A DNA stretch of 14,684 bases. Source: Pseudobdellovibrionaceae bacterium (lineage in GTDB: Bacteria > Bdellovibrionota > Bdellovibrionia > Bdellovibrionales > Bdellovibrionaceae). Positions 3,173-8,306 of the stretch are shown here, one piece after another. The stretch covers positions 1-14,684 of the forward strand of contig JBDHWW010000066.1 in the NCBI GenBank assembly GCA_039810425.1, written 5' to 3'. Made by a program: the position numbers and the translations under genes. Within the stretch, counting starts at the first letter, position 1. Each line of letters begins with the position of its first letter. Under the pieces are notes generated by a model that saw only the letters and a program-made list of their open reading frames with translations, was not told the DNA's origin and did no database searches.

Positions 3173-5866
3173 ATGGCGGAACAAAGCACGAACCAGCTCT
3201 CAGATCGTTACAACCCTCAAGAGGTTGAAGGCAAAGTTTATCAGTGGTGGGAAGAATCCGGTTTCTTTAAAGCAGAGAACCGTTCTACAAAACCTCCTTT
3301 CAGCATCATCTTGCCTCCGCCGAATGTCACAGGCTTCTTGCACATGGGCCATGCGCTCGATCATACAATTCAAGATTTACTCATCCGTTGGAAGCGCATG
3401 AACGGCTTCAATGCGATGTGGTTGCCAGGCACAGATCACGCCGGCATCGCTACCCAAATGGTGGTTGAGCGCGAACTCAAAAAGAATGAACACGTGAATC
3501 GCCACCAACTCGGTCGCGAGAAGTTCGTGGAAAAAATCTGGGATTGGAAAAACCAGTACGGCCACCGCATTTATTCACAAATGCGCCGCCTGGGTGATTC
3601 TTGTGACTGGGACCGTGCCACCTTCACTCTGGACGACAACGTTTCTAAAGCGGTTCGCAAAGTATTCGTTTCTCTTTACAAAAAGAATTGGATCTATAAA
3701 GGCACGAGACTCGTCAACTGGTCCGGTCCACTGGAGTCCGCAATTTCGGATCTTGAAGTAGAATACAAACAGGTGAAGGGCTCTCTCTGGCACATCAACT
3801 ACCCGCTAGAAGATGGCTCAGGCTTCCTTGCAATCGCAACAACTCGTCCAGAAACTCTCTTGGGCGATACGGCGGTTTGCGTAAACCCTGAAGATGAGCG
3901 CTATAAGCATCTCATCGGCAAAAACGTGATCGTGCCTTTGATCAACCGCAAAGTAAAAATCATTGCTGACACTTACGTTGATAAGGCGTTTGGTTCTGGC
4001 GTTGTTAAAATCACGCCGGCGCACGACTTCAATGACTACAAAATCGGTAAGACTCACAACTTAGACTTCATTAACATTCTCGATAAGAAAACAATCCTGA
4101 ATGAGAATGCGGGTCCTTACCAAGGCATGACCGTTGTCGATGCTCGCAAAAAAGTAGTTGAAGACCTTAAAAACTTGAACCTTCTTGTAAAAGAAGAACC
4201 CCACGTGAACAACGTGGGCCACTGCGAAAGATCCGGCGCCGTTGTCGAGCCTTTCTTGTCTGAACAATGGTTCGTAAAAACAGAAGGTCTTTCAGTTCCT
4301 TCACGCCGTGTCGTTGAAAGCGGTACGATCCGCTTTGAGCCTGAGTCTTGGACAAAGGTATACTTGCACTGGATGAACATCATCGAAGACTGGTGTATCT
4401 CGCGCCAAATCTGGTGGGGCCATCGCATTCCTGCTTGGAACTGCCCCCACTGCCAACACGTGACTGTTTCAGAAATTGATCCCACTGCTTGTGAAAAGTG
4501 CGGTAAATCGGGCCTGAAACAAGAAGATGACGTTCTCGACACTTGGTTCAGTTCGGCTCTATGGCCGTTCTCAACAATGGGCTGGCCGGAAGAGACCGAA
4601 ACTCTGAAGACCTTCTATCCGACGAGTTACCTCGTAACTGGTCACGATATCATTTTCTTCTGGGTGGCCCGCATGATCATGATGGGTCTTGAGTTCAAGC
4701 GTGATGTGCCGTTCAGAACGGTTTACATCCACGGCCTTATGCGTGACTCCCAAGGCAAGAAGATGTCTAAGAGCTCCGGCAACTCCGTCGATCCGGTTGA
4801 AATGATCGACAAGCACGGCGCGGATGCCCTCAGATTCTCGTTCCTGGCTCATTTATACTCCGGCAAGGATTTCAAGTTTGCCGAACAGCGCCTTGAAGGG
4901 TACCGCAACTTCATGAACAAGATCTGGAATGCGGCACGCTTTGCCCTCACGAATCTTCAGGACTTCCAGGCTCCCGCAGACGGCATAAAAGCGCTACCAA
5001 ACAAGGCGCAGATTTCAATCTTTGACCAGTGGATTATCACCAAACTCGGTGAAGTGGAAAAAACTGTGGAAGAAGCTCTCGAGCAAGAGCGTTTCTCAGA
5101 CGCAGCCATGGCTTTATATCAGTTCACATGGAACCAATTCTGTGACTGGTATATCGAGTTCACAAAACCGATCTTCAGCGGCTCCAACAAAGAAGAGCGG
5201 GCGGCGACTCAGCTCGTGATGGCGCAGGTCCTCAATCGTATGATGAGGCTCCTGCATCCATTCATCCCGTTCATTTCGGAAGAGATCTACCAAAAGCTTC
5301 CGATCCGTGGGCAGGCTTGTATCATCGATCAGTACCCGAACTCTCGTAATGACAAAGACTTCTTGGCGTTGGGCTCTCCGCAAGCCGCTTACGAAATCGA
5401 TATCGTTAAAGACGTCGTAACGGCAATCCGTAACATCCGCGGAGAAAACCGTATTAGCCCGGCAGAGAAGCTCCAGGTGCGCTTGGGTATTACGGAGGCC
5501 GATATCCAAAAGATCCTCGGCAATAATAAGACAGCCATCATGACGATGGCCCGTTTGGCATCCTTAGACATCGGTGCTGATGGCAACCTTCAGAAGTGTG
5601 CGGTGGCTCCCATCACAACGAAGATGGGTCAAATCAAGGTCATTATTCCGCTAGAGGGCCTGGTGGATTTTGATGAGGAAATGAAGCGTCTTAGTAAGGG
5701 TATCGAGAAGCTCAACAAGGACATCTCGATGCTGGCGAGCAAGCTTTCCAATGAAAAATTTATAGCGAATGCCGACGAGGACGTCGTCGCTGCCGATAGG
5801 GAGCTATTAGCTCAAAGTAAAGTGCAGATCGAGTCCATGAAAGAGGCCCTCCTAAGATTCCAATAA
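3173..5866 (+). CDS. valS: valine--tRNA ligase
   Basis: PPPNVTG.LHMGH (HIGH motif), GTDHAGIATQ, ATTRPET, DWCISRQIWWGHRIP, DVLDTWFSS, TGHDIIFFWV, KMSKS and a C-terminal coiled coil; 897 aa. Confidence 0.99.
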   Translation: MAEQSTNQLSDRYNPQEVEGKVYQWWEESGFFKAENRSTKPPFSIILPPPNVTGFLHMGHALDHTIQDLLIRWKRMNGFNAMWLPGTDHAGIATQMVVERELKKNEHVNRHQLGREKFVEKIWDWKNQYGHRIYSQMRRLGDSCDWDRATFTLDDNVSKAVRKVFVSLYKKNWIYKGTRLVNWSGPLESAISDLEVEYKQVKGSLWHINYPLEDGSGFLAIATTRPETLLGDTAVCVNPEDERYKHLIGKNVIVPLINRKVKIIADTYVDKAFGSGVVKITPAHDFNDYKIGKTHNLDFINILDKKTILNENAGPYQGMTVVDARKKVVEDLKNLNLLVKEEPHVNNVGHCERSGAVVEPFLSEQWFVKTEGLSVPSRRVVESGTIRFEPESWTKVYLHWMNIIEDWCISRQIWWGHRIPAWNCPHCQHVTVSEIDPTACEKCGKSGLKQEDDVLDTWFSSALWPFSTMGWPEETETLKTFYPTSYLVTGHDIIFFWVARMIMMGLEFKRDVPFRTVYIHGLMRDSQGKKMSKSSGNSVDPVEMIDKHGADALRFSFLAHLYSGKDFKFAEQRLEGYRNFMNKIWNAARFALTNLQDFQAPADGIKALPNKAQISIFDQWIITKLGEVEKTVEEALEQERFSDAAMALYQFTWNQFCDWYIEFTKPIFSGSNKEERAATQLVMAQVLNRMMRLLHPFIPFISEEIYQKLPIRGQACIIDQYPNSRNDKDFLALGSPQAAYEIDIVKDVVTAIRNIRGENRISPAEKLQVRLGITEADIQKILGNNKTAIMTMARLASLDIGADGNLQKCAVAPITTKMGQIKVIIPLEGLVDFDEEMKRLSKGIEKLNKDISMLASKLSNEKFIANADEDVVAADRELLAQSKVQIESMKEALLRFQ

Positions 5867-5873
5867 AAGGGCC

Positions 5874-5902
5874 TTGCGCTCCGCAAAACGGGGCGCTATA
5901 CC
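5874..5902 (+). promoter_or_regulatory. candidate sigma70 promoter for the riboswitch/HNH transcript
   Basis: TTGCGC (5874-5879)-N17-TATACC (5897-5902) puts the start site near 5909, just 5' of riboswitch P1. Confidence 0.4.
5876..5896 (+). terminator. GC-rich hairpin after valS (possible terminator)
   Basis: GCGCTCCG-CAAAA-CGGGGCGC forms an 8-bp stem with one G-U pair, 9 nt after the stop. No strong U-tract follows. Confidence 0.4.
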
Positions 5903-5914
5903 CTCATTTGTCCC

Positions 5915-5979
5915 CTAAGTATAAGCCGGAAATAAGGTCCGGAGTTTCTACCCGCCACCGTAAAAGGCGGACTATTTGG
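5915..5979 (+). ncRNA. purine riboswitch aptamer, guanine-type (C74)
   Basis: P1 CUAAGUA/UAUUUGG (5915-21/5973-79); J1/2 UAA; P2 CCGGA/UCCGG; L2 AAUAAGG; J2/3 GUUUCUAC (5944-51); P3 CCGCC/GGCGG; L3 CCGUAAA; J3/1 AC. U22, U47, U51 and C74 of the B. subtilis xpt aptamer are all present (5922, 5945, 5949, 5972). Confidence 0.93.
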
Positions 5980-5988
5980 AGATCAACG

Positions 5989-6474
5989 ATGAAGAACGCC
6001 CTAGCTCTCGCGGTCTTAGTTCTAAGTACTCTTAGCTTTCAACAATCGTTCGCCGACAGTTTCCCGACTGGCCCGGCTCAACAAATGACTCCTGGTAAAC
6101 TTTGCGACAAACCAAATTCAACACGTTATCGTGAAAAAATCGCATACTGCGACCGCGATGTCAGCCCGGCTCTCAAGCATCAAATCATCGAAGATTACGA
6201 CCGCAAATTCGGATACACAATCGAATCAATGCCTCGAAACGAATTCAAAATCGATCATTACATCCCTCTCTGCGTAGGCGGCAGTAATGACGTGACGAAC
6301 CTATGGCCGCAACACGAGAGCGTGTACACGATTACAGATCCACTCGAAGAGGCCTTGTGCGAAAAAATGTATCGTGGGAAGCTTTTGCAAAAAGACGCCG
6401 TGAAGCTGATCATCGAGGCGAAGAATCACTTGAACGAGGTTCCTGCGATCCTCGCCCGAGTGAGTGCGCTTTAG
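5989..6474 (+). CDS. secreted HNH (His-Me finger) endonuclease-like protein, 161 aa
   Basis: SD GGAG (5978-81) lies 7 nt before ATG 5989. Sec signal peptide MKNALALAVLVLSTLSFQQSFA; HNH core IDHYIPLCVGGSNDVTNLWPQ…DPLEEALC; 4 Cys. Confidence 0.75.
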   Translation: MKNALALAVLVLSTLSFQQSFADSFPTGPAQQMTPGKLCDKPNSTRYREKIAYCDRDVSPALKHQIIEDYDRKFGYTIESMPRNEFKIDHYIPLCVGGSNDVTNLWPQHESVYTITDPLEEALCEKMYRGKLLQKDAVKLIIEAKNHLNEVPAILARVSAL

Positions 6475-8244
6475 TTACTCCTGAGTATACGAAACCTTGA
6501 CGGAGCTTGTTTCCATCATGGCAACGTCTTCAGCCAGCATCAAAACACCATTCGAAAAGCTGTACTTGCCGGCATCAATCACCACTCCGTCGACTTCGAC
6601 TTTCACGACTTTAGCTACCATCGTATCCTTCATTGTGAAAGAGCGACCGAGCTTCGTTAAAACATCCGTTTTCAAATCCGCAAAGTGTTTCGACCAATCT
6701 AAATCACAGATGTTGTAAACCCGTGAACCCGTCTGAGTTGCGAGGGTCTGGTAAACCGCACCCGTCACGGCCTGGCAGCTACTTACCGAGGCGCCAAGAC
6801 CAATGAAGCTAAAGATCGCGGCTTGGTCTGAAGCCACTCCGGCGTTTTTCAAATACATCGTAAAGGTCGCCGCCGCCATCGACGAGTTGTCATCTGTTAC
6901 AAACACAATGATCTTCTTAGAGTCCGCCCGGAAGAACGGCATACCGCTGTTAATATTGGCGTTCAAACGCTTGATCAGCTGAGCAGGACCGTCGTAAGAA
7001 CCAATCGCCGCATCATACTGAACAAAGCGATTTGCATCCAATCCGTTTGGCAGGCTCACCGCCGTGCCTGTTGTTCCTTGCTTACTGAGAAGCATGAACT
7101 TCATGTCTGAAGACTTATCCAAAGCATTCACGAAAGCCGCCAAGTTAGCGCGTACGTTTGCAGCTTCCTCATTCATGGAGCCTGAATTATCGATCACCCA
7201 AACCATGTCGAGTGGCTTCATTGTTTTCGTGGCGTTGATCGAAAATCTTTCAGTCAATACCGGTGGTGGATTACAAGCCCCATCTTGACGAAGGAACGCA
7301 CCTTTTTGGTATTCGCCGGTTGAGCTGAACGCACCATTCGTACAGAGGTTCTTCTCTTGTTTTTCGTAGAGGTTCGAGAGGTTACCGCCGTACTTGCAAA
7401 GCGCCGCCTCAGAAACCGTTTGGCCAGCCAAAGTTGTGAACTTGAATTCGCCACTGACAAGACCGCCTGGGCAGTTGCAAGCACCTGTCGTTTGCAAGAG
7501 CTTACCTTTGGAGAACATGTTTTGCGCAACCGACTGAGAGTTTGTACAGATATAAGTTTGTTGCTTCTCATAGATGTACTGCAAGTTTCCGCCGTTCGGG
7601 CAGAGACCTTGCTCAACGATTGTTGCGTTGGGAACAAGCTTTATTGAAGAAGCGCCTTCCGCGGAACCATCAGCGCATTTACAAGCGCCAGCTTGGCTGA
7701 GAAGCGTGCCTTTTTGATAGTCTTCAGAAGAAATCAGCTTGCCGTTGTCACAAGTGTACTTCTGTTGTTTTTCGTAAGTCAGAGTCAAAGTGCCGGTGGC
7801 CGGGCACGCTTGGTTTTCGCTGATTGTTTGACTATCAACGTTTTTCCAAATACTCATGCCGTTGTTCACGCCATTAGCGCAATTACATGCGCCTTTTTGG
7901 CCGAGCAGTTTTCCTTTTTGGAATTCATTGCTGCCAGCGTACTTACCGCCTTCGCAAAGAAGCTTTTGTTGTTTCTCGTAAACCATCGTCAGGTTGCCGC
8001 CGAAGTCACACTTGCCCGGCTCTTCGATGTTTTGGCCGTTTACGACTTCCCACTTAATAGAGCCGCTGACCTGACCGTCATCACAAACCGCAGGTATTTG
8101 CGAGTCTTCATCACCTTTTGCTGCAAGAGCATTGTCCGCCTCTGACGGTTTAAATGACACAGGAGCGCAGTTCTGGAAAAGAACGCTGGTGAAGAGGGCC
8201 ACACCAAAGATCAGCGTGGCGATACGCAAGCTACGTGCTTTCAT
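6475..8244 (-). CDS. lipoprotein with four Cys-rich repeats and a C-terminal VWA (MIDAS) domain
   Basis: Start taken at ATG 8244 (AGGGGG 6 nt upstream; ATG 8250 is an alternative). Lipoprotein signal ending LFQN-C; VWA motifs LDMVWVIDNSGSM (DxSxS) and IIVFVTDD; C-terminal beta-rich segment. Confidence 0.85.
   Translation of the reverse strand: MKARSLRIATLIFGVALFTSVLFQNCAPVSFKPSEADNALAAKGDEDSQIPAVCDDGQVSGSIKWEVVNGQNIEEPGKCDFGGNLTMVYEKQQKLLCEGGKYAGSNEFQKGKLLGQKGACNCANGVNNGMSIWKNVDSQTISENQACPATGTLTLTYEKQQKYTCDNGKLISSEDYQKGTLLSQAGACKCADGSAEGASSIKLVPNATIVEQGLCPNGGNLQYIYEKQQTYICTNSQSVAQNMFSKGKLLQTTGACNCPGGLVSGEFKFTTLAGQTVSEAALCKYGGNLSNLYEKQEKNLCTNGAFSSTGEYQKGAFLRQDGACNPPPVLTERFSINATKTMKPLDMVWVIDNSGSMNEEAANVRANLAAFVNALDKSSDMKFMLLSKQGTTGTAVSLPNGLDANRFVQYDAAIGSYDGPAQLIKRLNANINSGMPFFRADSKKIIVFVTDDNSSMAAATFTMYLKNAGVASDQAAIFSFIGLGASVSSCQAVTGAVYQTLATQTGSRVYNICDLDWSKHFADLKTDVLTKLGRSFTMKDTMVAKVVKVEVDGVVIDAGKYSFSNGVLMLAEDVAMMETSSVKVSYTQE
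7270..8085 (-). repeat. four tandem 68-aa (204-nt) intragenic Cys-rich repeats
   Basis: Each unit reads CxxG…C.xxG.L...YEKQ[QE]...C…[FY].KG..L....GAC[NK] and has 4 Cys. Units start CDDG, CANG, CADG and CPGG. Confidence 0.9.
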
Positions 8245-8279
8245 TTTCATCCCCCTGAACGTGAATTGACGCCTTATTA

Positions 8280-8306
8280 TTATCGGCATATTTGTTTATT
8301 TTTTAA
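8280..8306 (-). promoter_or_regulatory. sigma28 (FliA)-type promoter for the VWA lipoprotein
   Basis: The minus strand has a perfect -10 GCCGATAA (8287-8280) with TTAA/TAAA 14-15 nt upstream, in an AT-rich context about 35 nt before the start codon. Confidence 0.7.

Follow-up and report, generated by a model that had tools for sequence, protein, structure and literature searches.

A guanine-type purine riboswitch overlaps the ribosome-binding site of a predicted exported HNH-like nuclease gene in a Bdellovibrio-like bacterium

The window analysed here is the whole of a 14,684-nucleotide (nt) stretch of DNA from Pseudobdellovibrionaceae bacterium (assembly GCA_039810425.1, contig JBDHWW010000066.1, forward strand), and all coordinates refer to it unless another locus is named. 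It contains a guanine-type purine riboswitch aptamer (5915..5979, + strand) whose last two base pairs overlap the Shine-Dalgarno (SD) sequence of a gene for a 161-amino-acid HNH-like protein, P0001 (5989..6474, +). The best reading of this arrangement is a guanine-I riboswitch acting as a translational OFF switch on a small HNH-type nuclease, probably exported by the Sec pathway, in a Bdellovibrio-like host. We place the probability of this reading at roughly 0.65, a joint figure that also covers the direction of the switch and the gene being monocistronic with the riboswitch as its whole 5′ leader.

A cmscan search of the 4227 families of Rfam 15 returned a single match at gathering score in the entire window, to Purine (RF00167) at 5897-5994 (+). 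This match scored 57.0 bits against a cut-off of 37 (E 8.7e-8), spanned the full model (1-102), was the best within the purine clan and was recovered again in a genome-wide search. Helix P1 (5915-5921/5973-5979) comprises seven pairs, C-G, U-G, A-U, A-U, G-U, U-A and A-U, two of which are G-U pairs. P2 (5926-5930/5938-5942) is closed by a G5925·A5943 mismatch and is one pair shorter than the Rfam consensus, and P3 (5952-5956/5966-5970) is topped by A5957·A5965. The loops read AAUAAGG (L2) and CCGUAAA (L3), and the junctions are J1/2 (U5922-A-A), J3/1 (A5971-C5972) and an 8-nt J2/3 (G5944-UUUCUAC-5951; GUUUCUAC) that aligns to the guanine-I consensus without insertion. The four ligand-contacting positions correspond to U22 (U5922), U47 (U5945), U51 (U5949) and C74 (C5972), in what we take to be the numbering of the Bacillus subtilis xpt aptamer. 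Numbering of this 22/47/51/74 type is named in the accessible parts of PMC9295807 and PMC6847200.

Comparative evidence supported both the helices and the contacts. In an alignment of the window element with 25 related riboswitches from other genomes (A2, 26 sequences), in which pairs were counted for the structure described above, 90.3 % of cells held standard pairs compared with 78.1 % in column shuffles, and none of 500 shuffles reached as high a value. When the 3′ partners were slid by one to three columns as a control, pairing was only 31-39 %. Changes on both sides were seen in 13 of 21 pairs, with covariation in all three helices; P2 was paired in 96.8 % of cells and P3 in 94.2 %, and the seven core P1 pairs were mostly paired. 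U22, U47, U51 and C74 were invariant in all 26 sequences of A2 and in all 51 of a further alignment (A3), made from matches in other species, or 77 of 77 together, and the lengths of L2 and L3 varied among relatives. An initial annotation, made from the letters of the window alone, had described a full guanine-type aptamer with C74 in the 5′ untranslated region and had named a covariance model score as a check. The score lies above the gathering cut-off, C5972 can be read directly from the sequence as C74, and covariation and the invariant contacts point the same way. By every sequence criterion applied, then, the element is a genuine guanine-I aptamer.

The same positions bear on the identity of the ligand, which is predicted to be guanine. 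We compared the window with the signatures of variant classes as given in the accessible parts of four papers. U51 marks nucleobase binders and C51 marks binders of 2′-deoxyguanosine (2′-dG; PMC8872408, PMC6847200), and the 2′-dG-II class combines C51 with a two-nucleotide insertion in J3/1 and a G-C junction-proximal pair in P1 (PMC6847200); the window has U51, a J3/1 of AC without insertion and the junction pair A5921-U5973. Xanthine-II carries G51 and a two-nucleotide J2/3 insertion, and guanine-II carries U51 and a one-nucleotide J2/3 insertion (PMC9295807), neither insertion being present in a window that has U51. The 8-oxoguanine riboswitch has lost U47 and the adenine riboswitch has U at position 74 (PMC10556655); here U5945 and C5972 are present, as U and C respectively in 77 of 77 relatives. 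It is very improbable, in our estimate, that this same aptamer naturally binds something other than guanine, such as 2′-deoxyguanosine, guanosine, xanthine, 8-oxoguanine or another purine, in the manner of the 'snuggler' variants. The idea draws on the gene context, as guanine-I is tied mainly to purine biosynthesis and transport genes (accessible part of PMC10556655) and a nuclease is atypical for it, on the association of 2′-dG-II with endonuclease I and ComEC (accessible part of PMC8872408), and on the short P2 and variable L2 and L3 noted above. Set against these are the absence of every published variant signature examined (U51, U47, C74, no J3/1 or J2/3 insertion, an A-U junction pair) and the invariance of the contact positions.

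The strongest evidence in the case is the conserved pairing of riboswitch and gene. We surveyed 121 genomes of the same bacterial family by cross-referencing protein coordinates with those of RF00167 matches lying on the same strand within 400 nt upstream; 150 of the family's 173 riboswitch matches were listed, and the pairing counts are accordingly lower bounds. Relatives of P0001 were present in 89 genomes and RF00167 in 98. At least 78 of 113 protein matches, distributed over at least 74 genomes, had a Purine riboswitch upstream, comprising at least 75 of the 95 matches at E ≤ 1e-30 and at least 3 of the 18 weaker ones. Locus L032 was negative in this count and positive by cmscan, at 44.4 bits. 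Direct cmscan of fetched loci identified the riboswitch in 25 of 29 loci of relatives and in none of L006, L008, L025 and L030. We also took the best 80 loci encoding P0001 relatives from an all-bacteria sample with one genome per species; these carried Bdellovibrio-type names, apart from a few metagenome-assembled genomes labelled otherwise. A covariance model built from A2, including the SD and start-codon flank (R1), found the element in 51 of the 80, always on the strand of the gene and just upstream of it, a result that is not independent of the Rfam one, the model being family-derived. The survey of homologues that had been proposed alongside the initial annotation thus favoured a conserved upstream aptamer, both among the strong homologues and across species.

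The position of the SD sequence points to the likely mode of control. The SD GGAG (5978..5981, +) lies 7 nt before the ATG at 5989, its first two bases forming the last two pairs of P1, and P1 is separated from the ATG by just 9 nt. The two A2 columns that hold the GG of the SD were paired in 24 and 21 of the 26 sequences. In all 32 related leaders inspected, the SD fell within the 3′ strand of P1 or adjoined it, with the start codon 4-11 nt later. The 26 leaders that precede HNH-like genes conformed to (G)(A/U)CUAUUUGG(A/G)G, with single-base departures in a few; their P1 3′ strand was mostly UAUUUGG, giving the consensus UAUUUGG(A/G)G, with AUG following about 5 nt later. The remaining six, before genes of the P0121 family considered below, had an SD of the CUACAAGGAG type in the same place, their P1 3′ strands being CUACAAGG-type variants. 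With a gap of only 9 nt there is no terminator between aptamer and ATG, and the earlier statements on this point and on the overlap of the P1 3′ strand (5973-5979) with the SD were both accurate. There is also no room for a separate expression platform, so that a ligand-stabilized P1 must bury part of the SD, which argues for a translational OFF switch. The aptamer would be its own expression platform, in that P1 is short and rich in A-U and G-U pairs and its 3′ strand runs into the SD. When the cytoplasm is rich in guanine, or in hypoxanthine or xanthine, both of which are also bound by the class, the ligand would lock P1, the first half of the SD would be held in pairing, binding of the 30S subunit would fall and less nuclease would be made. 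When purines are scarce, P1 would breathe and the nuclease could be translated and exported.

Two other modes of control have to be weighed, namely an ON switch, and Rho-dependent termination or mRNA decay in place of SD occlusion; taken together we consider them quite improbable. Lower translation often exposes mRNA to Rho or to RNases, which speaks for a contribution of the latter kind, and a feed-forward logic in which purines signal prey DNA is conceivable for an ON switch. Guanine-II riboswitches are also predicted ON switches for salvage genes (accessible part of PMC9295807). Against an ON switch, however, the SD is part of P1, and ligand-stabilized P1 cannot free it; moreover, in the stretch from the candidate promoter to P1, which includes only about 5-8 nt of leader, no conserved anti-SD or anti-P1 element was seen. 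As for termination, no terminator hairpin fits into the 9 nt before the ATG.

The product of the downstream gene shows several features expected of a small exported HNH nuclease. P0001 begins MKNALALAVLVLSTLSFQQSFA/DS, that is, MK followed by a hydrophobic run and then SFA, and by eye residues 1-22 (5989..6054, +) resemble a signal peptide ending at SFA/DS, which makes Sec-type export probable; this N-terminus is helical and of low confidence in the structural model. At E ≤ 1e-3 we found 737 homologues among proteins of similar length, nearly all unnamed or labelled 'hypothetical' and once 'HNH endonuclease'. The organism names among them (Bdellovibrio, Pseudobdellovibrionaceae, Bdellovibrionaceae, Bdellovibrionales and 'Bacteriovorax') agree with the Bdellovibrionota host that had been proposed from the sequence. 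All 36 aligned members (A1) share D89, H90, N100, N104 and H109 without change, together with C39, C54, C95 and C124, and four invariant cysteines fit an oxidizing compartment. The invariant DH...N...N...H residues form the conserved His/Asn/His pattern on a beta-hairpin plus helix that characterizes the HNH superfamily. An AlphaFold2 (AF2) model on A1 (predicted local distance difference test score, pLDDT, 89.2; predicted template modelling score 0.79) places one strand at residues 86-90, with DH at its end, a second at 105-109 that closes with H109, and then a helix at 110-128. Together with the HNH_5 match this defines a predicted beta-beta-alpha-metal core at residues 86-110 (FKIDH...NLWPQH; 6244..6318, +). 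When the 36 members of A1 were scanned singly, Pfam HNH_5 was found in 24 and HNH in 5 at E ≤ 0.01 (best E 2.3e-5), and no other family appeared. HNH domains also occupied most of the top rows of a Foldseek search against the PDB (Cas8-HNH, the Gme HNH nickase 4h9d, McrA, the pyocin AP41 and colicin E9 DNases and the HNH domain of Cas9). The nearest clusters in the ESM Atlas were unnamed Bdellovibrionota proteins, the rank-8 cluster having PF01844 in 11 % of its members. The evidence for the HNH fold is consistent but weak, and we regard P0001 as a probable HNH-type nuclease with predicted nuclease activity.

A number of observations weigh against the reading of the locus as a guanine-dependent OFF switch on an exported nuclease, the first of them concerning the RNA. 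Just two of the four SD bases lie within P1, and extension of the helix over the rest is not conserved. The initial annotation had suggested that the UCCCC just 5′ of P1 could extend pairing over the SD; this did not hold, as C5914 faces A5980 and the two extension pairs are unpaired in 15 and 11 of the 26 sequences. ViennaRNA folding of 5905-6030 forms the aptamer without ligand as the minimum-energy structure (-26.3 kcal/mol). With the 5′ strand of P1 blocked, an alternative arises at -25.6 kcal/mol in which the 3′ strand of P1 and the SD pair with codons at about 6015-6025. Since this alternative is only 0.7 kcal/mol higher and P1 forms without ligand, folding energies do not show a switch. 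The gene also occurs without the element, in 29 of the 80 loci across species and in the two closest same-genus orthologues, neither of which has a functional aptamer. In L080 (400-500; protein 72 % identical) the aptamer is deleted, leaving a gap of about 37 nt, and in L082 (400-500; protein 65 % identical) it has decayed, with loss of J2/3; both genes remain in the same place after valS and keep the UUGGAGAUUAA ribosome-binding region and start codon. Such orthologues and loci indicate that the gene works without the switch. Finally, counts across related genomes are not independent events.

Two further observations touch on these sequences. The coding segment at 6015-6025 contains UUCUAAGUAC, which nearly repeats the 5′ strand of P1 and is the pairing partner when P1 is blocked; considered as a switch element it was rejected, being absent from the orthologues inspected and probably a chance resemblance. 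Many riboswitch-less homologues have a GTAAAAATTTCA-like motif, with variants GTAATTTTTAC and GTAAAATTTTCA, at 60-120 nt upstream (L084, L085, L097, L104, L113, L115, L116, L135, L139, L150, L151 and L159), and this may stand in for the riboswitch as a promoter or as the site of a regulator.

The remaining points on that side of the balance concern the protein. Pfam HNH_5 matches P0001 itself (residues 81-105) at 17.4 bits, below the cut-off of 27.5. The Foldseek HNH rows have E values of 0.15-2, with no match at E ≤ 0.001, and VIA-align gave Z ≤ 4.2 (none ≥ 5), with HNH entries at Z 3.0-4.0 mixed with helical bundles. A PDB profile search yielded only hits to Cas8-HNH, with E values of 0.38-0.53, and an NCBIfam search of P0001 and of a P0121-family protein returned no match. 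The earlier description of a signal-peptide HNH nuclease-like gene is supported by the invariant motif, the beta-beta-alpha model and the HNH_5 matches in 24 of 36 members, with the caveat that the database matches are weak or sub-threshold. This leaves some weight for a reading in which a real aptamer precedes a gene whose product has a role other than that of a nuclease, perhaps binding metal or nucleic acid in the periplasm, with the purine link lying elsewhere. All HNH matches fall under curated or customary thresholds, the family is almost everywhere a 'hypothetical protein', and genes for DUF3465 (function unknown) and EamA (transport) proteins share the riboswitch, as described below. 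We nonetheless judge this reading unlikely, given that none of the 36 members departs from the catalytic-type residues, that the model has the beta-beta-alpha topology, that the weak matches are consistently to HNH families and that the co-regulated genes encode endonuclease I and restriction-endonuclease-like proteins.

The other riboswitches of the genome accompany genes of a similar kind. The genome to which the window belongs (3.54 Mb, 99.9 % complete) contains three Purine riboswitches, all before predicted exported nuclease-like genes and all with the SD in or at the 3′ strand of P1. One, on contig C20 (50.7 bits; locus L003 1022-1599, minus strand; C20:55502-56073), precedes a paralogue 53 % identical to P0001; the paralogue has a probable TTG start, and the riboswitch has an unusual L3 of CCAACUAA instead of CCGUAAA, with an SD, GGAGG, directly after P1. 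Another, on contig C68 (57.9 bits; locus L001 1501-2177; C68:9506-10179, +), precedes the gene for a 194-amino-acid protein, P0121/P0122, with the SD AAGGAG in the 3′ strand of P1. A phosphoribosyltransferase gene adjoins the C68 riboswitch gene in divergent orientation. No riboswitch accompanies the one endonuclease I gene of this genome.

P0121/P0122 has a hydrophobic N-terminus and the invariant residues E47, E80, D82, E98 and K100. An AF2 model of the family (pLDDT 92.2) retrieved restriction-endonuclease-like structures in nearly all top Foldseek rows (BstEII at E 1.3e-3, 3ijm, BpuSI, MspJI, BsoBI, EcoT38I, Card1 and NucC), with no match at E ≤ 0.001, and relatives gave weak Pfam matches to NERD, DUF234, HSDR_N_2 and HamA. 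These features suggest that P0121 likely represents a new secreted PD-(D/E)xK nuclease family. In the genus with complete genomes, many matches to the P0121 family contain one in-frame TAA or TAG, and a partial copy in the window's own genome (C76:4234-4593) contains two stops; the matches may overrun the true start, or some copies may be broken.

Across the family, 78 of the 150 listed riboswitches precede an HNH-like gene, leaving 72 others. Of these, 15 lie before genes of the P0121 family, which has 70 matches in all. From the remaining 57 we fetched 40 loci (L040-L079) from 35 other genomes. In 30 of these the downstream gene encodes endonuclease I, predicted to be secreted and of about 290 amino acids (PF04231; Endonuclease_1 at 114.7 bits in the example scanned). 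Six encode DUF3465 proteins of about 150 amino acids with a conserved HW.H.D...RPDG motif (Pfam examples at 73.1 and 68.4 bits), three an EamA-type transporter (Pfam example at 66.8 bits) and one an EEP-like protein (19.7 bits against a cut-off of 27). No purine-biosynthesis gene followed the riboswitch in any of the 133 cases examined. Membership of this regulon hints at a role for DUF3465 in nucleic-acid or nucleotide breakdown. The three EamA leaders (L050, L052 and L056) have GUCUCUAC in J2/3, with C in place of U48; they differ from the nuclease leaders in being longer, at about 40-60 nt, and in having a hairpin that lies 3′ of P1 and 5′ of the start codon.

Taken as a whole, these associations raise a broader proposition to which we assign about even odds, namely that in the Bdellovibrionaceae the guanine riboswitch, elsewhere a regulator of purine metabolism, has become a common translational governor of an exported nucleic-acid-degrading set. 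This set would span at least four unrelated folds (endonuclease I, small HNH, PD-(D/E)xK and EEP-like) plus DUF3465, digestion of prey or environmental DNA and RNA would be metered against the purine pool, and the three unannotated families would be new secreted nucleases identifiable by the riboswitch alone.

Within the window, the gene upstream of the riboswitch is valS (3173-5866; Pfam tRNA-synt_1 at 474.7 bits). The sequence that follows contains a candidate promoter, with a -35 hexamer TTGCGC (5874..5879, +) and, 17 nt 3′ of it and 12 nt 5′ of P1, a -10 hexamer TATACC (5897..5902, +). A stricter sigma-70 scan of 5600-6700 found no promoter; the looser pattern was tried after that scan and was tested against shuffles. 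The layout TTGnnn-N16-18-TAnnnn, with the -10 ending 8-18 nt before P1, was present in 36 of 52 riboswitch-bearing loci, the window included, compared with 2.7 on average and at most 8 over 200 shuffles. Transcription is accordingly predicted to start near 5908-5910, and the leader seems to begin just before P1. A GC-rich hairpin identified by eye just 3′ of the valS stop (5876..5896, +; 8-bp stem, CAAAA loop) lies within the spacer of the candidate promoter and is followed by a weak U tract, and a terminator scan reported a related hairpin on the minus strand (5889-5871). As the promoter overlaps this hairpin, read-through from valS is possible. A longer open reading frame from a TTG at 5908 was rejected; it would cross the aptamer, and in every orthologue translation begins at the MK... 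codon that follows the SD. Downstream, a gene for a 604-amino-acid VWA-domain protein (6475-8289, minus strand) converges on the HNH-like gene, which stops at 6474. The two stop codons abut at 6472-6477, and the junction has zero intergenic bases and no terminator between the genes.

Comparison with known systems places the element in a familiar class and the regulon in an unfamiliar setting. The RNA shares with the guanine-I riboswitches of RF00167, as in B. subtilis xpt-pbuX, the three-stem junction, the loop-loop GG/CC contact, the sequences of J1/2, J2/3 and J3/1 and the residues U22, U47, U51 and C74, and it would also share their OFF-type negative feedback on purine acquisition. The xpt type has a separate terminator/antiterminator platform; here there is none and the SD lies in P1. 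The xpt riboswitch controls purine salvage, transport or synthesis in Bacillota, whereas the genes here encode predicted exported nuclease-like proteins of a Bdellovibrio-like host. The add riboswitch of Vibrio vulnificus is a translational adenine riboswitch in a Gram-negative host; it switches ON, has U74 and uses a separate helix to sequester the SD. The present element resembles it in being a purine-family aptamer that would control translation through accessibility of the SD, and differs in having C74 and in sequestering the SD by P1 itself, which implies an OFF switch.

The nearest published parallel is 2′-dG-II, a class with few members, known from metagenomic sequences (Bacteroidetes). 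It too is a purine-family aptamer before DNA-acting genes, and its link with nucleases had been put forward in the initial annotation; this is right for endonuclease I and ComEC (accessible part of PMC8872408), although the RNA in the window is not 2′-dG-II. The C51, J3/1 insertion and G-C junction pair of that class (accessible part of PMC6847200) are absent here, as is the transcription termination by which it is reported to act (PMC12342879). On the protein side, the accessible parts of PMC3593177 and PMC7925074 describe the secreted nucleases Bd0934, Bd1244 and Bd3507 of Bdellovibrio bacteriovorus, members of the endonuclease I family. These are likewise exported nucleases of a predator, of the Endonuclease_1 family that follows 30 of the 40 further riboswitches; P0001, with 161 amino acids, is HNH-like and not of the endonuclease I fold. 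The word 'riboswitch' does not occur in the accessible parts of those two papers, nor 'purine' in that of a Bdellovibrio transcriptome paper (PMC3627812). Our full-text literature search found no paper tying purine or guanine riboswitches to Bdellovibrio, a nuclease or endonuclease I, a result to be read with the proviso that the gene lists of Weinberg et al. 2017 (PNAS), Singh & Sengupta 2012 and the supplement of McCown et al. 2017 may include cases. The RNA is an ordinary member of a well-known class, and the nuclease regulon appears undescribed in the literature searched.

In sum, the observation made in the initial annotation has been confirmed and its interpretation is supported in the parts that could be tested computationally. 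The idea of a purine-sensing module for scavenging nucleic acids is strengthened because, in this bacterial family, the same riboswitch also stands before genes for endonuclease I and for two further nuclease-like families. Exported nucleases would feed purine salvage, and a surplus of guanine would shut them down, so that the switch would couple breakdown of external or prey nucleic acid to the purine pool of the cell. We infer that such coupling is the most likely role, because the same device stands before several unrelated exported nuclease families. The usual OFF logic of guanine-I riboswitches would here be applied to a new step, in a minimal design in which P1 itself serves as the expression platform, and the orthologues with deleted or decayed aptamers (L080 and L082) offer natural controls. 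A well-understood RNA also flags three unannotated protein families, small HNH-like, PD-(D/E)xK-like and DUF3465. What sets the timing and extent of nucleic-acid digestion in the prey of such predators is not understood; if most exported nuclease genes do carry a guanine riboswitch at the ribosome-binding site, the purine pool would feed back on digestion in a simple way that can be tested.

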